Positions 14,411 to 39,800 of a DNA stretch of 64,000 bases are shown piece by piece; position 1 is the stretch's first letter; each line of letters opens with the position of its first letter. Source of the DNA: Camelus dromedarius (Eukaryota); the NCBI RefSeq assembly GCF_036321535.1, contig NC_087436.1, positions 45,758,001 through 45,822,000 on the forward strand, read 5' to 3'. Under the pieces are notes generated by a model. It saw nothing but the letters and a program-made list of their open reading frames with translations. It was not told where the DNA came from and ran no database searches. The position numbers and the translations under genes were made by a program.

Positions 14411-15372
14411 AAAAGACTTTCAAAGTTCTTCCCTTGATCCAGGTATAACAAAACATAACATGGCAAAAGACAAACAGTTTAGCGGTGACCCTTTGGCTAC
14501 TTGAATATCTTCTGTAAAAAAAAGAAGTGATGGAAGTAAGGGAGAGGGACAGAAGAAAAGAGGGAAGGAGGAAAGAAGAGTAAATATCAAAATATTAAAG
14601 ATTACTTTTAAATGAGCACATTTTTTAAAAGACTCATTCAGTCTGTCAGCAGATAGATAGGAATGTAACAGTTATTGTTCTTTCAAAGTGGTCTCACCAT
14701 CATGATTCTCTTTTTAAACTTATTTTTGCTAATACCTGTATTTCCAAGAACAAGGGAAATTTTTTTCTTACTTGCAGTATGAATACCACTACACAGTATT
14801 GTAATGCATCAGGTACCAAGAGCGGAGCCCTCCCTGTCCAGGGGCTGCATTTAACCTTAGTGAGAGCAAAAGTCTGTATGATCCCACTTCCACCTGCTAG
14901 GAAGTGCAGCAAGTGTGCACAGCAAATGCCAAAAAGCACTTTGAACAGGAATGAACGTCAAGGCTTGGCTGGTTATCCTCATCTTTCTTCACTGTCTCCA
15001 AAACTATCTTTTTAAAATTCAGAGTCCACTTTTTCACATGAATTAATTTTTCAGAACTAAAACATTATCCTAAATTGTATTATTAATTTAGCACTACCCT
15101 AAGAATTATTTCTCTGAACATATTCTACACAACAAAAATCAAGATTATTTGTTTTTCCAGTTCAGAACTTTCATGATTTTTTTTAAAAAAACACGCTTAA
15201 AAACACTCCATTTGTGATTTTCATGAAGGATATGAAAGTGTCCAAAGGTCATCCAAACAGAGGGTCAACTATACCTTTAGATCCTTAATTTTGTGGAAGA
15301 AATGTTGTGGAGCTCACATGGGCCTGAGCTGTAAGACTTTAGCAGTAAGACTCTGGTCCAGAACCCTCACTT

Positions 15373-16496
15373 TTAAAAGTCCCGAGATTCCACACTTGAC
15401 CTAGAACAAAGCAGCAATTTTTCTGAATTGTCTCTGTGCCTTCGCGTCCAAAATTCCCCTACACTTTGAGACCTGGGGGACAGAGTCTCAAATTGGATGT
15501 AAGTCTCTTTTGCCAAATCATCTTCCCAGAAGGATTCTGATGCACACTGCAATTTGCAAACTTTGTACAACAAGAAAAAAATCAATGGCAAGATAATGAC
15601 ACAGGCAGCACCACTCACCACCATAAGGAAAAACCCTTGAGAATCACCTTCTTCTTCAACTCTGTCAGTAGAAAAGGTGATACACTGGTCTTTCTGGGGA
15701 GGCATTCCTTTTGGACAGACACATGCTATATATTGCCGACCAGGCAACAAGCCATTTATGGTGACCTGGTTCTTGCTGGAGTCTGCATTAAGCAGCAGCA
15801 GGTCCTTCTCACCATACTTGGAATACAACACGGTCACTTCTGAGTTCTGTGTGGTGTTAATGGTGTTCCACGTCAAAATCACACTCTCTTTGGTCTCACT
15901 GACCACCTGGAGGTTTTCTATTGTGGCATTCGTCTCCATAGGCAGGGCTCGATCCAGCAATGCCAACTCTTCTCTTTTACTTGCACTAGCTAGGGGAAGC
16001 TTACCGCCACCTATCTCCACCTTTAAATTTCTTTTTCCATTTGGGCGGAATGACTGCCACCTGGCCATGGTGGTGCTTGTGGAAATTCTAGTTCTTAGAG
16101 TTGTGGTTGAAGAAACAGGGGAGGAGAAGAAAGGAGATAAGGAGAAAGAAGCGGTGGAGGGAAGAGACGAACTAGAAGTAGGAAGAAAAGTAGAAGAAGC
16201 CGGGGAGGAAGGAGAGGAGGAGTAAGGCCACGGAGAGGATGATGAATCAGGCAGAGATGTAGATCTTCTAGATCCTGGCTGGACCTCTTCCTCCAGGTGA
16301 TCCTCAGTTCTTCTTTCAGAACTGTCTGATGATATAGCCGTTGTGACGACACCAACCACTGTCACAGTAACCACAGCTTCTGACATCCCAGCCAAATTTT
16401 TGGCCTTACATTTGTAATCCCCAGCATCCATGTAAGAAATGCCTGTCAAGCTTATTATGGACCATCTGACTCCCTCCCCTGGAGATTCCTGAATTA
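15373..16496 (-). CDS. LRIT3: LRIT3 exon 4 (Ig end, S/T stalk, FN3, TM, tail)
   Basis: Acceptor (t)nccAG|TA ATT CAG GAA; matches ORF 15373..16449; stop TAA at 15373-15375. Confidence 0.95.
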
Positions 16497-19400
16497 CTGG
16501 AAAAAAAAAAAAAGCACACTCTATGAGAAGAAAGAAAGAAAAGACTCAAGCAACATGTTGACTGAAAAGGAAGCAATATTTGGTTCTATATGCGTACTTC
16601 TCACAAAAGCCAAGAGGGAAATGACCCACTGTAAGTCTCTGATAGCAGGCGATGGTTCTGTAAATTGTTTATGTGAAAGTCTAGGACATGCTGGGTGCCA
16701 TGAAGTCTGTATGGGAAGTGGTATTTTAAAAAGACACAGGCTGAGAATTAAGGAACTTCTGCCTTGGTAAACTTTTGTTCACTAAGTAGTATGTGATTCT
16801 AGATAAGTCGATTAGTGTCCTTAGGCCTCTGTTTCTACATTTTTTAAATAAGAGGATAAGACAAAGATCAGAGATCTCTTCCAATTCTAGCTCACTGTGA
16901 TTCTGCAGATGTTTATCACAAGACTTTACTTAAATATGTCTCAAAATATTTTTTCATCGTAGTAGAATGCCATTTATCCACACAGTCAGAAAGTACAGCA
17001 GATCATTTTCTGGCATGGAGGAGTCATAATTTGTATTCTTAGTAATCTTCCACTGCATATTTAATTTAGATAAACTAGTAAACCATGGGGTTTTTAAATT
17101 TGTATAATAATATACAGTTTTTGCAAAATTGGGATTTTACTTTCCTAAACACTAAAATCTGAACATATTTCCATTCTGTCTTGATTTCTGAAGCTTTCTG
17201 AAAAATAATAACATACCGAGTGATATCTCAGTAGCCAGAATTTAACTCAGTACCGTAAACTGTGGGCTATTCACTCTATCTATTTGTAACAATATTAGGC
17301 CTTGACTTTTTTTTTTTTAACTCAATCAGATTTCATTATTTCAACCTCAATTTAAATTTAATTTGGAAGAGTTTTAAACTATATTCCTTTAATCATCAGA
17401 CTACCACTGTTGAAACTAAGGCCAAAGCACTGATTTGGTCACAGTAGGATCTAAAAAGTCTAGGTAATCAACATTTCTAAAAATTATACTTTTGCCTCAT
17501 AATAAGGTTTCTATGTAATTTATTATTTAAATAATCATTCAAAAATAAGAAATTTGTATGAAATTCCCTTAAAGAAATCATCATGGTTATACATTTTAAA
17601 ATGAGCAGTATCCAAGATGATGGAGCAAAGATAAAGACAAAGGTCTTATCTGCAACCATCCATCCATAGCATCATGTTGTTCTCCATTTAAGAAAAAATC
17701 AGATTGTCTAAACTCATCTATGGAGGTAATTAAGTAAACTGAGGAAAATATTAACCAATAAAGTGTTCCTTTCAAATTTCCTTCATCCAACAATCTTGGC
17801 ATATCTTAGGAATTCAATTTTCATTAATTTTGTTTGTTTTGGGGGGGAGATAGTTAAGTTTATTTATGTATTTATTTACTTTAATTTTTTTTAAATGGAG
17901 ATACTGGGGATTGAACCCATGACCTTGTTCATACTAAGCACGTACTCTACCATTGACCTATACCCTCATCCCATTCTTGGCATATTTTAGTAGAAACAAC
18001 CAGCCAATTTCAAATCTTACAAAAACTTGAGATTAAGTTCAGTCATTTGTAAACTCCTTGTTTCAAAAGCGTGAATTAAGAGGATACCTGTATAATTAAC
18101 TGGCGAGCTTTCTGGTCTGCTCCACGTGAGCTGTGGGGTGGGGTAGCCAGTGGCATCACACCGCAGCAGAACATTACTGCCCAGAGCAGATGTGATCTGG
18201 GTGGCCGAGGTCATCACCGATGGCTTTAGACACTGCTCCAACTCAGCCCGCTGGAACAAAATCCCTGCGAGGCGTTCAGGTTCACTGCAAATCATCAGTG
18301 GATCAAGAAGTACTACTGCAGGGTCAGCAATTTTTGACAATGCCATTATTTTGGAAATGTGACAGTCACAGAGCCATGGGTTGTCCTGCAGACCTAAACC
18401 AAAAGGGAGGAAAAGGTTGATAAAGGTTCTCCTGATAACTTACATTTACATCGCAGCCTTGTGGGATAGCATTTCTGCACTGTGTCCCTAAAAACATAAA
18501 TGTTTTGAGGGATCAAAGAGAGTCATCTCTCTGTCAGTTTTGCCCTGCACTCCAGCCACATAAATGAATGTAACCTGTCAGTTCAGATCATTAATGATCG
18601 TAGCTAACAATGAGCATTTACTCTGTCCTAGGCTCTGTTCTAAGCACTTACCTGTATTACCTCATTTAATCTCAACAATCCTATGAGGAGGTGAATATTA
18701 TTTCCCCATTTTAAAGATGAAGAAGCTAACAATATCACTAATTATCAGAGAAATGCTAATCAAACTACAATGAGGTATCACCTCACACCAATCAGAATGG
18801 CCATCATTAAAATGTCTACAAACGATAAATGCTGGAGTGGATGCGGAGAAAAGGGAACCCTCCTACCTTTGGTGGGAATGTAGTTTGGTGCAGCCATTAT
18901 GGAAAACAGTATGGAGATTCCTCAAAAAACTAAAAATAGACTTACCATATGATCCAGCAATCCCACTCCTGGGCATATATCTGGAGGGAACTCTAATTCC
19001 AAAAAATATATGCACTCCAATGTTCATAGCAGCACTATATACAATAGCCAAGACAAGGAAACAACCTAAATGTCCATCAAGAGATGAATGGATAAAGAAG
19101 ATGTGGTATATTTATACAATGGAATACTATTCAGCCATAAAAAATAATAAAATAATGCCATTTATAGCAACATGGATGGACCTGGAGATCATCATTCTAA
19201 GTGAAATAAGCCAGAAAGAGATAAAAAAAAATACCATATGACATCACTCATATGTGGAATCTTAAAAAAGAAAAAAGAAGATACTAATGAACTCACCTAT
19301 AAAACAGAAACAGACTCGCAGACATAGTAAACAATCTTATGGTTACCAGGGGAAAAGGGGTGGGAAGGGATATATTTGGGAGTGTAAGATTTGCAAATAT

Positions 19401-25400: not shown

Positions 25401-28252
25401 GAGAGGGTAGCACTTCTTTACCCGCTTTGTTACATAGCAGTCATGGCTTTGCTAAGGTCAGCTGCCACACATGGCTGGACATATTTCAAAATATCTTTTG
25501 TGATTTGTTATCATGATTATAAAAGTAATGCATGCTCATTGCAGAACATTCTGAAAATATAGAAAAGCAGTAAGATGTCAGAGAATAGTTAACCAGTAAA
25601 TGTAACTTTTTAGTGTTTTTCTTTGAAAATGTTACAATATTTATGATCATGCTTTATGCACAATTATATATTCTACTTTCTAAATTTAATGTTATACTGA
25701 AAATATTTTCATGTTAGTTTTAAAAGAATCTGAACCCTTCCTCAACAAAATATTAGCAAACCAAATCTAATAATACATTAAAAGGATCATACACCATAAT
25801 CAAGTGGGATTTATTCCAGGGATGCAAGGATGGTTTAAGATCCACAAATCAATATAATATATCACATTAACAAAATGAAGGATAAAAGTCACATGATCAC
25901 TTCAATAGATGCAGAAAAGGCATTTGACAAAATTCAACGTCCATTTATGATAAAAACTCTCAACAAAATGAGAGGGGATGTACCTCAACATCATAAAAGC
26001 CATATATGACAAACCCACAGCTAACATCATATTCAGGGATGAAAAGCTGATCCTCTAAGATAAGGAACAAGACAAGAATGCCCACTCTCACCACCTTTAC
26101 TCAACATAGTATTAGAAGTCCTAGCCACAGAAATTAGGGGGAAAAAATCTAAAAAGGAAGAAGTAAATCTGTCACTGTTTGCAGGGGACATGATACTATA
26201 TATAGAAAACTCTAAAGAACCATCAAAAAAGTTAAAACTAATAAATAAATTCAATAAATCCACATGATACTAAATCTACATACAGAAATCCATGGCATTT
26301 CTGCACACTAATAACAAAATTATCAGAAAGAGAAATTAAGAAAACAATCCCATTTAAAACTGCATCAAAAAGAATAAAATATCCAGAAATAAATTTAACC
26401 AGGAAGGTGAAAGACCTATACACTGAAAACTCTAAGACACTGATGAAAGAAATTGAAGACAATACAAACAGATGGAAAGATATCTTGTGCTCATGGATTG
26501 GAAGAATTAATATTGTTAAAATGTCTGTACTATGCAAAGCTATCTACAGATTCAATGCAATCTAACCAAAATTCCAATGGCATATTTCACAGAACTACAA
26601 CAAATAATTCTAAAATTTGTATGAAACCACAAAAGATCCCAAGTAGCCAAAATAATCTTGAGAAAGAACAAAGCTTTATGATGATTCCTGATTTCAAACT
26701 ACACTACAAAGCTGTAGTAATCAAAAGAGTATAGTACTAGCACAAAAACAGGCACACAAATCAATGGAACAGAACTGAGAGCCCAGAAATAAACATACAT
26801 ATATGTTGACAATTATTTTATAACAAAGGAGTAAAGAACACACAAAGGAGAAAGGACAGTCTGTTCAATCAACAGTGTTGGGGAAAAAGCCACATGCAAA
26901 AGAATGAAACTAGATCACTATCTCATACCATACATAAAAATTAACTCAAAATGGATTAAAGACTTGAATGTAAGAATTGAAACCATAAAATTTCTAGAAG
27001 AAAACATGGGTCAGACCTTACTGACATTGGTCTAAGTGATGTTGTTGTGGATCTGACTCCAAAGGTAAGGAAAACAAAAGGAAAAATAAACAAATGGGAC
27101 TAAACTATAAAGCTTCTGCACAGCAAAAAAAGAAATCAGCATCAGAACAAAAAGGAAATCTACTAAATGGAAGAAGATATTTGCAAATCATATATCTGAT
27201 AAGGGATTGATATACAAAACACATAAGGAACTCATACAACTCAACAACAAAAACAAATAAACAACGTGATGACAAAATGAGCTGAGGATCTGAACAGGTA
27301 TTTTTCCAAAGAAGACATAGAGATGGCTAATAGGCACATGGAAAAATGTTCAACATTACTAATTATTAGTGAAATGCAAACTAAAATCACAATGACATAC
27401 CATCTCATTACTATGAGAATGTTTATTATCAAAAAGACAAGAAATAACAGATGTTAGAGAGGATATGGAGAAAAGGGAACCCTCATACACCATTGATGGG
27501 GCTGTAAATTGGTGTAGCCACTATGAAAAACAGTATGGAGATTCCTCAAAAAATTAAGAACAGAACTGCCATATGACCCAGCTATTCCACTTCTGGGTAT
27601 TTATCCAAAGAACATAAAAACACTAATTCAAAAAGATATATACACCCTGTGTTCACTGAAGCATTATTTACAATAGTCAAGATATGGGAAAAACCCAATG
27701 TCCAACAATGGATAAAGATATGGTATATACATACAATGGAACACTATTCAGCCATAACAAAGAATGAAATCCTTCCATTTTCAACAACATGTGAATGGAC
27801 CTTGACAGTATTATACTAAGTGAAATATGTCAGACAGAAACAAATACTGTATTATATCACTCATATGTGGAATTCAAAAAACAAACACTCACACCAGTCA
27901 GAATGGCCATCCTTAAAAAGTCCACAAACAATAAATGCTGGAGAGGGTGTGGAGAAAAAGGAACCCTCCTACACTGTTGATGGGAATGTAAATTGGTGCA
28001 GCCACTATTGAGGACAGTATGGATGCTCCTTAAAAAACTAAGAATAAACTTATCATATGATCCAGCAATCCCACTCCTGGGCATATATCCAGATGAAAAT
28101 ATAATTTGAAAAGACACATGCACCCCAATGTTCATAGCAGCACTATTTACAATAGCCAAGACATGGAAACAACTCAAATGTCCATTGACAGATGACTGGA
28201 TAAAGAAGATGCGGTATGCATGTATGTGTGTGTGTGTATGTGTGTATGTATA

Positions 28253-28287
<35 letters not shown>

Positions 28288-31200
28288 ATACATATATATA
28301 TATACATATACACATAATGGAACACTACTCAGCCATAAAAAAGAATAAAATAATGCCATTTGCAGCAACATGGATGGACCTGGAGATTGTTATTCTAAGT
28401 GAAGTAAGCCAGAAAGAGAAAGAAAAATACCATATAATATTGCTTATATGTAGAATCTAAAAAAAAAAAAGGACACAAATGAACTTACCTACAAAACAGA
28501 AACAGACTCACAGACATAGAGAACAAACTTATGGTTACCAGGAGGTAAAGCGGGTGGGAAGAGATAAATTGGGAATTCAAAACTTGCACCTCTTGGGGAG
28601 TGATGGAAATGTTAGCTATCTTGATTGTGGTGGTGGTTTCATTGGGGTATACATCTATCAAAATTCATCAAATTATGCATCTGAAATATGTGTAGTTAAT
28701 GTATAGGAACCATACCACAATAAAGGTGTTAAAAATTAATAAAAAGTAAAATATGAAAAAACAAACAAACAAAATAAAACAAAAACAAACTCATAGATAC
28801 AGAGATCTGATTAGTGGTTACCAGTTGCTAAGGAAACTGTTGAGGGGTTGGTGAAATGGATGAAGGGGATCATCTGTATGGTGATGGACGGTAACTAGAC
28901 TTGTGGTGGTGATTACTTTGTGGTGTATACAGATGTCAAATTATAATGCTGTACATCTGAAACATATAATTTTTTTAAAAGAATCTAAACCCTAAAACAT
29001 AAAGCTATTTATCTCCATGAACAATGAAATTTCATAACACTTATCCATTTAATACCTAAGTTCTCATTCAGATTTAACTCACAACTGAAAAATATCACTA
29101 TTCTAGAAATTATTTCCTCATAGTAACATTAGGAACTAATCATTAGAGAGCTATTAATACCAATTTAGTAATATGATTTTATTTTCTACTATATATCGCC
29201 ATAGGGTAATTTTATTAGAACCAAGAATTGCTTCCAAAGAAACTTTAAAAAAATACACAGAGAAATAAAATCTCAATGTTAGTTAAGACAATTTCCACCC
29301 GTTAGCTTTGCTCATAAGGATCAAATTAGTGACTAGAATGAAGTAAATAAATACTACAGTATGGGTTTGCATGGTTCCTATCAGAGTGTTTACTTGAAGG
29401 ACCCTACAACTACTGTTAAATTCAACTAATTTTTTCCATAACCCATCCCACAATACTTCTTTTATTTTTTAATTAAAAACATTCGAAGGACTAGATAAGT
29501 AGTGGGCAAAAGATGAAATAACTATATGAGAGATATTTTTGTCACTTTTTCTCTATTTGGCTAATACTCATATTTTAAGTCTCATAAGCATCATAATGCA
29601 TATACATTTCAAAGAAAGTAATACTAAAGCCATTTAGTGTTGTCACAGTACTTTTTTCCCAGTTTAAAAGTTTTTGTTGAAGTATAGCTGATGTGTGATA
29701 TTGTATGTTACAGGTATACAATACAGTGATTCATAAGTTTTAAAGGTATACTCCATTTATGGCTATTATAAAATATACAATACTTTCTTCTTTATAAAAA
29801 AAAACTCAAATTTATCTTTTGTTTTATTTACAATTTACTTCACTTCAGCAGATGCTTGGCAGGCAGTATTGGTCAGGAGGAATTTCTGGCACAATTTCTT
29901 AACATCTAGTTGCTTCTCATTCCAAAAGTCTTATAAGTCTTTCACTGGCCAGACACTCAGAATTTCTTTCATCCTTTTGAGAACTACAACTTCTGTAGTC
30001 ATATGGACATAATTTGTGAAATGAGAACACAGCCTTATTGAGTGAACAAAATTTTAGCAAATCAAACTGGTCAAAGCCTCAGGCTTGTGTCTCATACAAA
30101 AGTGGAAGAGGCCTCACTGCCCTCAGATACCACTGAGAAGGGTCTCAGGTCACTGATTTCAATCAGGCAACCACATTTACTGGGCATTCATCATGTGCAG
30201 AGTACCCTGAAAGCACTGTGAGAAGATACAAGAAAAGAGAGGGGCTCCCTGGAAGGAGCTGACATGTTAAAGACCCAAGAAAATATCCATAGACCCTAAA
30301 CAAAGCCAGGATCTAAATATACAAAGCTGCACTGAGAGACCAAGTCCATTAGGACACTCATCTGGGGCCAGTAAAATAACTGGTGTCTCCACTATTTCTT
30401 TTTAGATTAAGAAAATTTGGAAGCTATTCTTCCTAATTAAACCACTGCTACCTCATAAAGATGCTGATGCCTTACTCCCACACCTGATGAACCTCATCAA
30501 GAGCTGAAAAGAAACCAGGGCAGAAGGTTGGCCATGGCAGAGTAGGAAGCACGTATGTGCTCACAAGAATCAGTACCGGTTGGTAGATTTTGTCACTCTT
30601 CTTCAGGCTCTCTAAGAACAACGTTAGTCACTCAGTTTATGAGGCCAACTCCCTTCCCTGCCCCAACACACACACATACACTGCTGCCCTCACTCCACAC
30701 ATGTGCATGCTCATGCACACGCACACACACACACACCCCCACACAGAGCCATTACACCTTACACAGGGCAGACTGGTAAACTGACCTAGGTCAAATGGTA
30801 GAGTACTATTCCATTGAAAATGCAAGTACAGAGTAAAACTCCAAATTCAATGGACATGAAAATATTGAATAAATGAAGGTACACAGAGCAAATTATCTGG
30901 ACCTGAGAAGCCCAGAGGCTCTGAACTTACCGAGAATAATTCTTCTTGGTGAAAGGTCCAGGCTTCTGGACGATATTGTAACTAAGTGGGACCAGCTTTC
31001 CAGGAAATCTGGTGGAAGTGTGGTTAATCTGTTGCTTGATAAATCCAAGTAGGCGAGGTTCTTCAGGTACCTGACCGCCTCATTTGGCACACTGGTTATT
31101 CTGTTATTGTGCAAATCCAGGGTCCTTAGACGGGGCATGTCCCTCAGAGATGTCCAAGGAAAAGCAGCCAGAGAGTTTCCATCCAAGCGCAACTCATGCA

Positions 31201-32166
31201 GCTGCTTCAGGTTGTAAAAGCTGCTGGCGTCAAGGCTGACCACAGAATTATAAGTCAACCAGAGGTACTGGAGCTCCACCAGGTAGTAGAAGGCCTCGGC
31301 GGGGATTCTACGGACAACGGTCTTCTCTATGCGAAGCTTCACAGTGTCCACAGGGAAGTTCGTAGGTACCTCATTCATATCCAGGTCATTACATAGCACC
31401 GACCTAGTGTCACAGAGCGGAAGGAAACCTGCTTTCTGAAACTCATTTGAAGAAATAATACTTATTTGAAACATGCATCAATTTTTCATCCCCTACTCGT
31501 TTTTTGAAAAAATCTCTTCAGCCTGGCTAACCTGTTCATTAATGATTCGTCATTATCATCATCTTCTAGGTTGAACCATATGAAATGGTCATTTGAGGTG
31601 GTTAAAAAATCGATCAAGTATCAGCAACTTCATGGGATTCAGCCTGATTGATGGAGCTCTTTATGTGTCGGGCCTGTGCATTGAGGATCACATCCATTCC
31701 CAAATTTAATCATCACAATAGCCCAATGAGCTAGATATTGGGTAGTAGTTGTAAAGGCACCATCTCTAGAGTCAGGCTGACCTTGGTTCAAGTCAGCTGC
31801 CTCCTTTGTGGCCATGGAAAGCCACTTCACCAATCACTTAACTCATTTTCCCATATGGTACTATTATTGAAACGGATGGAAATTTTTACATCTTCCTGGC
31901 ACATAATAAGCACTCAATGGGTGTTTGCTACTTTTATCATCAATCTCACTTTTACAAATAAAATAACTGAGGCCCACCAATATTAGGTAACTTCCCAAGG
32001 TCACAGAGCTAGTGGTTACACAACTACCTTTCAAACCCATATCTGTCCAACTCCAAAGTGCACACTCTTAATCTTTTTAGGAAACAGACCATTTTAAAGG
32101 AATCCCTCTTGAAGTTATAAATTGATCCTTTTAAAGATCATACAAGAAGGAAAGAGAAAGAGCAAG

Positions 32167-32228
<62 letters not shown>

Positions 32229-34319
32229 GGCAAATGTTCATACTAGATGTTTAAAGTGAAGCTCTATTTTAACAATGTGACCTGTGTGTTGCTTTCAGCC
32301 TAGAGAATAAACCAGAAACTACAAGTTTATTTATTTTTTACCACTCACTAACTTAAGTAACCTTGAGCAAGTCACATTGTGCTCTTGTTTATTGGCACAT
32401 GTAAAACAGGCATAGAAAAACAAGCCTGCCCCATGTATGGGTGTAAGGTATGAAGGATCAGAGAATTTAGATTCATTTTAACCTGAAAAAGAAAAGATTT
32501 ATCTCTCATTATATATTAATCCTCACTGGATTGCTGAAATTGAACAATAAGAAGTGTTGCAAACCATCTAAATTATAATGCATCACATAGTTAGTTATAG
32601 TACATAACAATAAAATGGCCATTCAGTAAAACACATCACATTAAATCAGTGAATTCTGAAAGCCAGCCTATAATGTAAAGAGGGAAACAGCAGAAGCCAT
32701 GAGGTACTGATATGCTGGTCATGTTGTCTCCTCTCTTTAACTTTAGGAGAAGAGCCTACGGAATCCTGGGATTCTCCAGATACACCTGTTACTCTTCACC
32801 TCTATTCTGAATCACACATTTCAGTGCTGCTTTATACCAGAATGATCCAGTTTCTCCTCACTCAGTCAGCATTCCAGTACACTGGGATGGGAGGAAGCCT
32901 GGACTGGAAGCTAAAAGACCCAGCATCTTTATCAGCCAGTCACTGCAGCAACTCAACACTGTGACCTCAGACAAGTCATTTAGTCTCTATGTGGTTTAGT
33001 TTATTCATTTAGAAAATGACAGTGGTCGAACTAGATTATTTCTGGAGTTCTTCTCAGGCATAATATGCTATGAATTTTATAAAATCCACCAATAGTGGGG
33101 ACACCATGGAGAAGGAAACATTTCTGTGATTGTTTTCCCAAAAGTAGCCTGGCCTGCGTCATTAACTGTTGCCTATCTTCTGCTAAGTAGGTCTTTAATT
33201 TGTTATATTATTCTCACTGTGTTTAGCCACCTAGTGAATATCTCGGAGATACCAAGAGTTAGTAAGGTAAATTTTATACCGTATCAAAACAAACTACTCA
33301 AAAACATGTGTTAATTGTTATTTATTTGTATAAATTTGTAAGACATAAATTGAGCAATTCTTTTAACAAATTAAGAGGCTCACTGTTCACTTTAACCGAG
33401 TGACAAAAAAATCTGATTTTGTTATTAAATATCTTCTCAAAAAAAAAAAAATCGAGGTCTACCATGTTTAGCTAACAAGAGTTTTTTTGCTTTGCATTTA
33501 ACTTCTATTTAAAAGGACTCATGCACATTATGAATAAGTATTTATTCTCACTTCACTTTTTTTTTAAAAAAAAAAAAAGTAGATATTAAAGTAACGCAGA
33601 GGTTAAGTAATTTCTGTAAGGTCCCACAGTGTCTGCAACACAGAGTTGACACGTTTCTTTCAAACTTCTCTTCTTTGTAAACTCCAATATCTTAAAATGA
33701 GAAATTCTGATTAGAAACCTCTCTAATTTCTCTTATGTGTTCTCCTTCCTACTTCCTAAGCTCTATCCAGTTGGCATGAATAATCCTCAAAATGAAATGG
33801 AAAACCCTGGAAGCAAATGATCTGGGCATGTCACACACCTTCTGATCGGCCCTGCCCTCATGTGCTTTCTATAATCAGGCTGAGCTGGCCACACGCATTT
33901 CAGTGGTTTGACCTCCTGCAAGGTTCGTTTTGTGAATATGAGTGCCATGAATATTCTTGTAACACAGAAAGCGTCTGAGAGTCTCAAAGAATTTGAGGGG
34001 CTTTGAAGGAACTAAACTGCTCTAAATGAAAACAGTGGCGGAGTAGGCAACCAGGATTAACACAATTAAATTAAAGCTTATCTACATTAAACCTTCTCTC
34101 CTCTGATTTCTGATCAACAGTTTGCTTTCAAATTAAGGCCATCTGGTTTGAGTCCTTTTCCTCGCAATCATTAGAACACTTAATAGCAAGGAGAGAAGCG
34201 TACCTTGATCCCATGCCGTCATTTCTGCCGTGATTGTCACAGGTGCACTGTGAGGGACACGAACAGCTCACTCTTTCCAAAAAGCTAAGCGCAATGCACA
34301 GACTTGCAAAGAGACGCAT
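15373..34319 (-). CDS. LRIT3: Leucine-rich repeat, Ig-like and transmembrane domains 3; join(complement) 34204-34319, 30931-31403, 18088-18393, 15373-16496; 2019 nt = 672 aa + stop (C-terminus frameshifted, see findings)
   Basis: Signal peptide + LRRNT (CPSQCTC), LRRs, LRRCT (NPWLCDC), Ig (CDATG...DAGDYKC), Ser/Thr-rich stalk, FN3, TM segment, cytoplasmic tail; syntenic with RRH. Confidence 0.97.
17810..17972 (-). mobile_element. tRNA-Ala-derived SINE (vic-1-like), LRIT3 intron 3
   Basis: Reverse-complement head; TSD tcttggcatat(c/t)ttag at 17794 and 17975. Confidence 0.9.
18088..18393 (-). CDS. LRIT3: LRIT3 exon 3 (LRRCT, start of Ig domain)
   Basis: [10 protein letters not shown]...[16 protein letters not shown]...NYT; tttAG / G|GTATCC; 306 nt. 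Confidence 0.97.
18731..19602 (+). mobile_element. 5'-truncated young L1 inserted into a MIR (LRIT3 intron 2)
   Basis: ORF 18837..19241 is an uninterrupted ORF2 C-terminal segment; 3' UTR and poly(A) follow; TSD aaagatgaa(gaa)gctaa; MIR halves flank it (about 18590-18720 and 19605-19700). Confidence 0.92.
19950..20660 (+). mobile_element. LTR16-like LTR fragment followed by MaLR-internal-like fragment
   Basis: ctcaaattccccttcagagagaa...agctagctgacggcctcca, then gaggagccttgttatagagtggtaga...; names from recall. Confidence 0.45.
21132..21415. mobile_element. Old ERV LTR fragment (MER90/MER74-like) inside a MIR
   Basis: tgccatagttttatgggtgttggcagaagacacaagactcct motif; MIR sequence on both sides. 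Confidence 0.4.
22400..23590 (+). mobile_element. Old L1 (L1MB/MC-like) 3' portion
   Basis: Degenerate ORF2 end (ORF 23106..23288 ...NWKQPRCP) plus 3' UTR. Confidence 0.75.
27885..28785 (+). mobile_element. Nested younger L1 3' fragment with internal (TG/TA)n expansion
   Basis: Repeats the ORF2 C-terminus already present at 27400-27850; flanked by aaaaacaaac(a)ctca on both sides. Confidence 0.85.
28216..28315. repeat. (TG)/(TA) compound microsatellite inside L1
   Basis: Direct reading; replaces the short tatata tract seen at this position in the other L1 copies. Confidence 0.9.
29670..29776 (-). mobile_element. Very short L1 3' end
   Basis: ttgttgaagtatagctga...acagtgattca; TSD-like aca(g/a)tacttt at 29645 and 29777. 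Confidence 0.6.
30931..31403 (-). CDS. LRIT3: LRIT3 exon 2 (LRR repeats)
   Basis: [13 protein letters not shown]...LDLHNNRIT...LDLSSNRLT...RRIIL; acactAG / G|GTAAGT; 473 nt. Confidence 0.97.
31720..32070. mobile_element. Two MIR fragments in opposite orientation
   Basis: ttcctggcacataataagcactcaat (sense) then ttttacaaataaaataactgaggccca...ccaaggtcacagagctagt (antisense). Confidence 0.65.
32168..32227. repeat. (GAAA)n microsatellite
   Basis: Perfect run of about 15 units in LRIT3 intron 1. Confidence 0.97.
34204..34319 (-). CDS. LRIT3: LRIT3 exon 1 (signal peptide, LRRNT)
   Basis: [38 protein letters not shown]; donor AG|GTACGC; 116 nt. Confidence 0.95.
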
Positions 34320-36816: not shown

Positions 36817-39800
36817 CTACAATAAAAAAGGGAATATCTGGCATTATCTCATATTGACTTGGAACTTTTGAAGTAGTTACAAATATGGCTAAGGTGCCAC
36901 TACTGCCAATTGGCATCTCCAAATAAATTTCTGCCTCCAACTTGAACATCTCCTATTGAGACCTTTTATAAACGTGTAAAGTATATGGTACAGTTAAAGA
37001 CCAATTTTGCACCACTGATTATAAACATTGAAGACATTTTTAAAAATATTTTATTTATTTTTTGAAATCTTTTGGTGGGAGGAAGTAATTAGGTTTAGTT
37101 ACCTATTTATCTTAATGGAGGGACTAAGGATTGAACCTAGGACCTCGTGCATGCTAAGCATGTGCTCTACCACTGAACTATATCCTCCCCCTAAACGTTG
37201 AAGACATTCAATAAACATCATTAATTATATCTGTTTAGGATGGTGCTTCTAATGTCAATTGCAAGGAGTTATTTATTTGAATTAAGGATATGTATTTCAA
37301 GCATTTGTTCTGAGCAAAAGCCTAGTTTAAATTAAGGCTTAAGAATAACTGACCTTTCCAAAAGAATTACCAATAGACTCTGAATTTTAAATGTGTTCTT
37401 TATTCTTCTTATGTGGTCTGTTTGGTATTAAAAGTTTTTATGTTTCTGCATGTACCTGTAGCTAAAGCTGCTTTCCCAAACATGTACATAAATACACAAG
37501 TTTAATAGAAGCAGCATGGCATTCCCAGATCAAATTACTTCACCTCTACTGAGACTTCAGGTCAAATATTTAAGCGCAGTAGATTGGTTCATTCCATCTT
37601 TAAAAAGCAACAGGAAATGAAGTAGTCTAAGCTTCACTGAGAAGGCAGGAAAGAAATTCTTGCTGAGAGTCTCCACAAAGGTGGAAGGGGAAGAATCTCG
37701 AATATTCTGAATGACTACATACTCCTGAAGCCCTTTATGTTAGCACTGAATTTCTCTCTTGGATTCGAATGATATGTCTTCCTTCTAGTAAATATACAGC
37801 TATGCTATCAACTTAGGGAGTCCCACATTGCCTCGCCTTGTCCATTTTCCAGTAATGGAACCACTCTTCTTTGTAAAACCGACTCCCTCTGTTTCGAATG
37901 GGGTAAACATATGAACCAAGCCGAGCTCACCAACAACCTTCCAGGGTCTTTTCTGCCAGAGAGCCCCCTGAGATGAAAGCATCTGGGGATGCTTAGCTGG
38001 CAGAACTTGGGTCGTAAGTTACCCGTGATCATCTTGCCTCCACGTGGGAAAAGCCTGTCACAGAACTGGAGCCCTAGACATGTAAGATCCTAAATGCTGC
38101 TTTAGTTTCATGAACCAAATAACTTCTACATTAGTTTGAAGTGAGCTTCTGTTATTTACCTCCCTAAAACTTTTAGAACATTATCTGTTGCCTTCTTAAC
38201 ATTCTTTCTGTATATATAATATATATATATATTTTTTTTTTAAATTGAGAAGCATTTTAGACCTGACTTACTTTTTATTAGCAATCACATAAATACAGGG
38301 ATTGTAGAAGGTAGAAGATTTTGCAAACAGTGGAGCTATGATGGCCATGGAGGGAGGAATCTTCTTTGGGTCACCAAAGGAAGCCCATAAGCACACGATG
38401 GAATAAGGGGACCACGCCAGCAGAAACATGAGTATCATTATCACAGACATCTGTAAAAGAAATCAATATTTGCCAAGCCCAATACCTAAAATATCAAAAT
38501 AGCTACTATATCTAAAGCTGCGTGAAAAAGTATCTAGATTGGACCTTACGTGTATGTCATTGAAGACATAAAGGAAATACTGAATTTTTCCCCTCATTGC
38601 ACTTTGCTTATGTGCCCAAAGTCATCTATGATAACAAGGACTTGTGAAATGGGTAGAATGTTACACAAATGTAAAGAATGCCCTCTTTCTTTTGGTGAGC
38701 TAGGGCAGAATGCAAAAGCTAGCTCTGGTGAGAGGCAGATGAACCCACTCCTAGCCCACTTCCAGTAATTGCGGACTACTGGTATTGTGCTTTTTTTCTC
38801 ACTGTCATCTGTTAATCTAAAAAATAACTTTCTAAACTCAATCTGGGAAAAAAAAGTCCTATACTGAGTTCAGTGAATTCTAATACAGGCCATTTGAGCT
38901 CAATATATAATAAATGATATATAATACATACAGTGCAGATAGTTTTGTAAATGAGCTCTCCCTTTGCATTTTGTTTAAATGAAAAATTGTAATTTTACAT
39001 TGTTCCCTTCTGATTGCCCACTAAAATGATAGAAAAGGTATAAAAAGACACAAATCCATAACATCTGAGAATCACAGATTAGACAAAAGCTTTCTAAGAA
39101 TTAAAACCAAATAACCATTGGACAAGTGGCACATTCCTTATCAGACATGAATGATTTAAAAACAAATTTAAAAAAAATTTCCCAGGAATGAGGGAAAATC
39201 AGAGACAAGCTAATCTATTCCTCAGAACTACAGAAGTCTCAGGAATTGGAGTCGACAGCTCTGAATGCGGGGCTACATATGGAATCTAAAACATAAAAAT
39301 TCATTGAAATCTGCAAAAAGCAGCAATTAGACTTCTGAATCCCCTCCCTATTCAGCCAAGGAACTGCCCCTTCTCCCCTGAAGAACCCCAGAGGGTCAGT
39401 AAGAGAGGGCAAAGCAAGGAAACTCAGGCTGGGGGACACTGGACTGGGCTGAGAGCTGGAGTACTGTTCTGAAAAGAGGGGTGCTGCATGCTGCCCCTTC
39501 CTGGCACTGAACCGTGAGAATGTGGGTGGATATACTTGTACCTCCCACCCAGGAAGGTGAATCTTCTTGTAAACTGACCAGCCCAGAAGAAAATACCCAG
39601 ACACAGATCATCAGAAATCCCCCCACTCACAAGACATATCCCAGCAAAAGAGCACATCCAGAACTTACAATCAGCTTTTTAGTGCATCAGTCTTAAATAT
39701 GCAGGGACAGTCATTAATGACCAGATATTGAGGAAACATACAAACTGACATGTAGAGACCAAAAGGTTCAGGAACTCAGGGGAAACAAAAAATTTGTGAT

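Follow-up and report, generated by a model that had tools for sequence, protein, structure and literature searches.

Loss of the LRIT3 C-terminal tail through an old frameshift shared by artiodactyls

LRIT3 is a protein of the night-vision synapse, and in a 64,000-nucleotide stretch of dromedary DNA (the window) its reading frame stops ahead of the tail with which the human protein ends. Is this an assembly error, a private allele of the sequenced animal or a fixed change of a lineage, and what does the protein lose with it? The account we favor, at a probability of about 80%, is a single 2-nt deletion on the artiodactyl stem that would have been nearly neutral and became fixed.

We delineated the gene in the window, where it occupies four coding exons on the minus strand: exon 1 (34204..34319, start codon at 34319; tblastn, with a GT donor in the exon search), exon 2 with the leucine-rich repeats (30931..31403; tblastn, exon search, Pfam LRR_8), exon 3 with the end of the LRR region and the start of the Ig domain (18088..18393; tblastn, exon search, Pfam), and the last coding exon with the end of the Ig domain, a Ser-rich linker, an FN3 domain, a transmembrane helix and a 64-aa cytoplasmic tail (15373..16496; sequence, exon search, Pfam). 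The exon search assembles these GT-AG exons into an intact ORF of 672 aa, whose product is identical to P0245 (XP_010979386.2), a record that perhaps has the same source as the window and was counted as non-independent. Pfam detects LRR_8, Ig_3/I-set and fn3 in P0245, as in other LRIT3 proteins, and a hydrophobic segment at residues 586-608 is its single transmembrane helix. The best matches are named LRIT3, the protein is placed within mammalian LRIT3 in the tree, and the gene follows RRH. It shares with LRIT3, a gene for complete congenital stationary night blindness (CSNB), the four coding exons, the LRR-Ig-Ser-rich-FN3-TM layout and the position downstream of RRH, and differs from the human gene in that the protein lacks the last 14 residues with the predicted PDZ-binding motif. 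The E-Y-Y/F/L-C ending of LRIT3 orthologues is missing from the C-terminus, which reads ESRDF, and a degraded version, ESYC, lies in the +1 frame. Part of the last exon matches, at 99% identity, a record named Camelus ferus. An own-genome search found a single copy, which rules out a paralogue or pseudogene as the source of the site.

The gene order in the window is GAR1-RRH-LRIT3, each on the minus strand. GAR1 exons lie at 62408-55135, and those of RRH (peropsin), upstream of LRIT3, at 45930-36700, as five matched segments plus a candidate last exon near 36848, all open without stops. Two open frames within LRIT3 introns, 18774-19241 (plus strand) and 27857-28324 (minus strand), resemble what we take to be the end of LINE-1 ORF2, and a long T run (16497-16514) immediately precedes the acceptor of the last exon. 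Four whale records (P0253, P0254, P0258 and P0259) depart from the last exon where the transmembrane segment begins (window ~15620), as does a camel fusion model, P0239; these exits suggest an internal splice donor and predicted LRIT3 isoforms without the anchor.

On the minus strand an open frame runs from 16545 to 15373; its product finishes ...SSVESRDF before a TAA at 15375-15373, the ending that a sequence-only reading of the window had claimed. Behind this stop, the +1 frame holds the old tail (15339..15380, now 3' UTR, with TAA at 15341-15339), in which 11 of the last 13 residues of human LRIT3 are matched, many more than chance would give. The ending of the human record (P0332, named Homo sapiens), ESQVTFKSEGSRPEYYC, is the one that this reading had given. 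The new C-terminus, Asp-Phe-stop, consists of the old Thr-Phe-Lys codons read out of frame (15373..15381). Specifically, 14 terminal residues of camel LRIT3 are replaced by DF, with an additional Q to R change, and the cytoplasmic tail measures 64 aa against 76 in a primate orthologue; the predicted PDZ ligand is gone and the gene is otherwise intact, which bears out the claimed exchange of about 14 residues for DF. The further proposal of a 2-nt deletion in a Val codon holds for the net 2-nt frameshift and is too exact about the codon. Among in-frame representatives caught by the pattern, the residue at the site is Met in 123, Val in 25 and another in 17; because Met is the commonest, we place the deletion only within the Gln-Met/Val codon pair, the remnant of which would be 15381..15384, a placement drawn from orthologue tails at which the exact bases are not resolvable.

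To follow the ending across species, we compared proteins from two homologue searches (the best 120 of 262 and the best 120 of 124 matches) and opened ten artiodactyl-placed clusters comprising 97 records, with 15 members listed of 46 for the whale, 56 for the bovid, 24 for the pig, 18 for the cervid and 25 for the contig cluster. All cross-species comparison was at the protein level, and no hippopotamus, giraffid, pronghorn or chevrotain was identified among the records compared. Among the matches listed, 79 of the 97 artiodactyl records end in E[S/F]-x-D-[F/Y], 10 carry the old tail and 8 stop short of the site. Camelids end in ESRDF in all seven records that reach the site, whales in ESHDF in 10 of 11 (named: Eschrichtius, Monodon, Physeter), ruminants in E[S/F]PDY in 54 of 56 (named: Rangifer, Cervus, Muntiacus, Capra, Ovis) and suines in ESQDF in 8 of 15, again among the matches listed. 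Four of the camelid records, presumably wild and domestic Bactrian camel and alpaca, differ from the window protein by 5, 5, 7 and 12 residues, and all end in ESRDF. Contig-derived fragments (Logan, ENA, JGI) have the short end in 30 of 30 cases among the matches listed (27 PDY, 2 QDF, 1 RDF). When the tail was removed before alignment, the artiodactyl rows formed one clade with a support of 99 (FastTree). A reading of the cluster representatives in which suines kept or regained the tail was dropped, since NCBI and contig records of that cluster end in ESQDF.

These records bear on whether the change is real. The deletion site adjoins a run of three Gs, which would suit an assembly error, and an allele private to this one animal had also been considered; as distinct camelid records and a contig fragment from Logan end in the same way, and pigs, whales and ruminants share the frameshift, we regard both as having next to no chance of being right. 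The option of a fixed lineage change stood, the lineage being all four sampled artiodactyl groups and not camels. Because the end is shared, occurs in distinct records and falls in one clade, we favor the single deletion. The residue before Asp is specific to each group (R, Q, H or P), so a single origin requires later substitutions, and this variation, together with the ease with which mammals lose the tail, would also suit parallel deletions at a mutation-prone spot in camelids, suines and cetruminants. Such convergence is very improbable, as the four groups share one frame, one stop and one clade, unlike the losses elsewhere in mammals, which have many different end-points. A metagenome scan for DNA of relatives gave 92 pattern matches, none of them confirmed, and 14 DNA runs (4 studies) contain all 150 sampled words of 15000-16500, all flagged as possible sources and not counted as support. 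Four further sequencing runs contain about half of these words, and two contain a share of 0.05.

Nine of the ten artiodactyl records with the old tail are UniRef-only models, namely six in the pig cluster, P0123 (presumably peccary), one Moschus and one bovid (which we take to be Bos); the tenth is the whale record P0261. The old-tail models join the tail through differing residues (QTFK, QAFK, STFK, STTK and FTIK), the pig models conflicting with one another at the junction (QTFK and QAFK), and in the pig, Moschus-like and bovid clusters the NCBI and contig records carry the short end. Because the nine models are UniRef-only, the pig junctions conflict and contig fragments are short-ended, they look frame-patched, as automatic 'frameshift introns' of 1-4 nt would make them; we assume them to be Ensembl-type projections. 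P0123 stands alone, with no second record for its species, and the musk deer model extends one residue beyond the old stop. Full or nearly full tails alongside truncated sisters or contigs were noted in P0123, P0127, P0275, P0281-P0283, P0285, P0287, P0303, P0345, P0357 and P0010, where patched annotation probably conceals genuine frameshifts or stops. P0261 (XP_059780200.1), presumably Rice's whale, is sister to another whale record in the tree and ends SRSSWNLMTFKSEGSRAEYYC; the part homologous to window 15339-15395 ends SWNLMTFKSEGSRAEYYC. Its old tail would require an extra 1-nt loss a few codons upstream, either as true compensation or as an assembly error.

The orphaned frame could still be in use. 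Shifty stops at which ribosomes move by +1 are known, among others, from antizyme and bacterial RF2, and in the window the Phe codon and stop form a UUU-UAA site resembling these, at which a +1 slip would bring back the old tail at the net cost of one residue. UUU-UAA permits perfect re-pairing of tRNA-Phe and enters the correct frame, and UUU UAA is listed among the Euplotes +1 sites in the available part of PMC5011710. Pig and whale records likewise have Phe-stop at the end of LRIT3. No stop interrupts the orphaned frame in the window or, judging by the patched models, in pig, peccary, musk deer and Bos; what suines have lost from it is two whole residues; and 14 GT-AG pairs could restore the frame with the membrane anchor kept, so that rescue might come from either recoding or a cryptic last-exon intron, with selection keeping the frame open.

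Several observations weigh against such rescue. Ruminants end in Tyr-stop, which allows no re-pairing after a +1 slip, yet keep the orphaned frame equally (codons deduced from protein); with 54 ruminant records ending in this way among the matches listed, the site is not conserved across artiodactyls, and +1 slippage is unlikely because ruminants lack it. The 93 nt after the stop, considered apart from sequence-only stimulators, show no RNA structure beyond that of shuffled sequences (z = -0.28, 70 of 200 shuffles as good), none of the 14 candidate splice donors matches more than 5 of 9 consensus positions, and in musk deer the modelled frame overshoots the old stop by one residue. The accessible text of PMC10952039 reports low +1 efficiency in human cells even with the Euplotes release factor. 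We simulated neutral drift of the 12 codons taken from the window, with assumed distances, a transition bias of 4 and 0.07 indels per substitution, and found that the frame stays open with its stop 38-78% of the time over the distances tried, and 59% at a distance of 0.1. In the camel, 2 of the last 11 residues of the orphaned tail differ from the placental consensus, that is 2 differences in 11 codons against 1.95 expected of neutral DNA (assumed d = 0.1) and 0.96 for the mean of in-frame laurasiatherian tails (n=24); the orphaned frame therefore appears to have drifted about as neutral DNA would, over a stretch of only 11 codons. For other species the frame is visible only via patched models, in which intact frames are over-represented. 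The likeness to +1 shifty-stop frameshifting in Euplotes (AAA/UUU-UAA) extends to a re-pairing codon before the stop and an open +1 frame behind it, and ends there: the LRIT3 site is not conserved in ruminants, and neither a stimulator nor a sign of second-frame selection was found. We consider rescue by slippage or splicing decidedly improbable. More doubtful still is a leaky frameshift in which a +1 slip, in camelids, pigs and whales, at the UUU-UAA produced by the deletion gives a minor LRIT3 product with the ancestral tail, selection has kept that tail since the artiodactyl ancestor, and the baleen-whale lineage of P0261 regained it through a compensating 1-nt deletion; if true, a 'saviour' slip in a gene for night blindness would have given rise to a new case of mammalian recoding.

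We then return to the single, nearly neutral deletion and to how freely the tail is lost elsewhere. Non-mammalian representatives keep it in 115 of 115 cases among the matches listed, in a set that is bird-heavy and has non-independent members. Among the 125 mammalian representatives listed, 88 keep the tail (three of these being doubtful models), 23 have other truncations, 8 have the artiodactyl end and 6 are unclassified. Tail state changes among the matches listed number 21 on the 117-row tree and 14 among the 108 rows left after nine patched, conflicting or compensated ones (P0010, P0015, P0017, P0123, P0127, P0261, P0275, P0303 and P0345) are dropped, and we read them as losses because the outgroups are full-tailed. 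About 13 of the losses are non-artiodactyl and scattered over different end-points; seven are backed by more than one record, and the others are single records, possibly errors. Vesper bats (named Eptesicus, Pipistrellus) have KSEEI-type ends, marmots and ground squirrels (named Marmota) end in S[M/V]ES, for example SMES, and the remaining multi-record ends are ESQA, ESQIT, ESQMT, KSEVS and SRPEY, which we take to belong to guinea pig, colugos, manatee, marmoset and beaver. Even in-frame tails carry the terminal Cys less often in placentals (0.79) than in non-mammals (0.99). NP_001274153.1 (P0367), presumably mouse LRIT3, ends EYYG, and the mouse, the main experimental model, may therefore itself be without a good PDZ ligand. 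Because the tail is almost invariant in birds, reptiles and amphibians and is retained by most mammals, it is not functionless in general. The extreme tail of LRIT3 nevertheless appears to be under relaxed constraint across placental mammals.

Outside the tail, artiodactyl LRIT3 is conserved like that of other laurasiatherians, and the gene is not decaying. Comparing 8 artiodactyls with 9 other laurasiatherians, each against four outgroups, we obtained identities of 0.835 and 0.842 for the LRR, 0.902 and 0.915 for the Ig, 0.632 and 0.645 for the Ser-rich, and 0.799 and 0.791 for the FN3 region, respectively. The retained cytoplasmic part gives 0.872 against 0.897, and the transmembrane segment (23 residues) is somewhat less conserved in artiodactyls (0.652 vs 0.723). 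Within the retained cytoplasmic tail are YIQF and acidic-dileucine-like stretches, which we take to be candidate sorting signals by resemblance.

The lost residues include the predicted PDZ ligand. PDZ ligands fall into class I (S/T-x-hydrophobic), class II (hydrophobic-x-hydrophobic) and class III (D/E-x-hydrophobic); the ancestral ends YYC, YFC and YLC resemble class II, and the new ends RDF, QDF, HDF and PDY match no class consensus. A C-terminal tag blocks canonical PDZ binding. In the available part of PMC3943948, the LRIT3 motif is presented as a hypothesis awaiting confirmation, by which LRIT3 would bring TRPM1 to the synapse. PDZ elements are described in LRIT1 and LRIT3 and none in LRIT2 (PMC12022667, as far as its accessible text goes), and Frmpd2 is cited as a Lrit1 partner (PMC9581579, same scope); for the LRIT3 motif, the literature searched names no binding partner, as far as its available text extends. 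According to the accessible portion of PMC13224074, the LRR and Ig domains are necessary for signalplex function in vivo and FN3 is dispensable, and the intracellular domain is sufficient for trafficking in rods, a domain within which that portion does not dissect the tail itself. Endogenous mouse LRIT3 with a C-terminal HA tag forms presynaptic puncta in rod and cone terminals (PMC12015494, accessible text), a result on localization and not on function, possibly obtained in the presence of a wild-type allele. The weight that the sequence-only reading implied for the loss is not upheld, given about 13 further placental losses, a hypothetical PDZ role and function mapped to LRR and Ig.

Selection for the new end is the alternative that would give the change a function, either with ES-x-D-F/Y as a substitute motif, such as an aromatic C-terminal signal for export or binding, or through a PDZ-ligand loss that retuned the synapse. 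All 79 short-ended records among the matches listed have the Asp and close with an aromatic residue, and there is one stop position in four groups. These records are strongly related and not independent, however, and Asp-Phe arises automatically once the old Thr-Phe codons are read in the new frame; the residue ahead of Asp-Phe/Tyr varies (R, Q, H, P), R-D-F fits no PDZ class, and the roughly 13 other mammalian losses end in unrelated residues, in animals that we believe to be of mixed day and night habit. We therefore rate selection for the new end as unlikely. Because the rest of the protein is conserved, its function has been placed in the ectodomain by published work and C-terminally tagged LRIT3 reaches the synapse, the artiodactyl change would be better read as a loss, tolerated under relaxed constraint, of a predicted PDZ ligand, and this suggests that the last 14 residues are dispensable in placental mammals.

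The history that we propose begins with a single 2-nt deletion in the Gln-Met/Val codons on the artiodactyl stem, after which the old Thr-Phe-Lys codons would have been translated out of frame as Asp-Phe-stop. Nonsense-mediated decay is not expected, because the stop is in the last exon. The product would keep the whole ectodomain, the transmembrane helix and 61 old cytoplasmic residues, minus the last 14 and the predicted class II ligand, and would still work, with its LRR and Ig domains acting across the cleft from the photoreceptor terminal and a terminal-sorting signal presumably in the retained, conserved part of the tail. Because the extreme tail appears to be under relaxed constraint across placentals, the deletion would have been close to neutral and could become fixed, with the orphaned frame then decaying as ordinary 3' UTR. 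Single origin, near-neutrality and normal function of the truncated protein are what we infer from the protein comparisons.

Disease alleles of the same gene offer a contrast. The available text of PMC3943948 gives the human CSNB alleles p.Ser384*, p.Arg440* and p.Ser513Cysfs, and that of PMC6775105 the canine truncation p.249*. Like the camel change, these are frameshifts or stops, the human ones likewise in the last exon as described there; unlike it, they also remove the transmembrane helix. The artiodactyl change, fixed throughout an order, leaves the ectodomain, the anchor and 61 cytoplasmic residues in place. Loss of ectodomain or anchor of the CSNB type is absent in camel LRIT3, with its intact 672-aa ORF, GT-AG introns and conserved domains. 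Another parallel is PDZ-ligand rewiring as presented in the accessible part of PMC3276551, where a short C-terminal motif is likewise altered by a small mutation and the gene retained; the LRIT3 case differs from such gain and loss in being loss by frameshift, about 14 times in one gene.

We found no description of the artiodactyl truncation in the literature searched, which included the first 40 of 215 papers on LRIT3 and was mostly without subscription journals; comparative-genomics supplements may tabulate the indel. The loss is of a known kind, the tolerated loss of a C-terminal linear motif, and involves no new mechanism; it is real, ancient and order-wide, and apparently undescribed. For annotation, some database models conceal the loss through frame patching, and the indel could serve as a rare genomic marker for Artiodactyla. 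Retina models in pig, sheep and cattle, as well as C-terminal antibodies and tags, begin from a different LRIT3 tail, and caution is due before human truncations in the last few codons are called pathogenic. Together with the roughly 13 other losses, the order-wide loss forms a natural deletion series for the last 14 residues of LRIT3, by which the old PDZ hypothesis becomes sharply testable.
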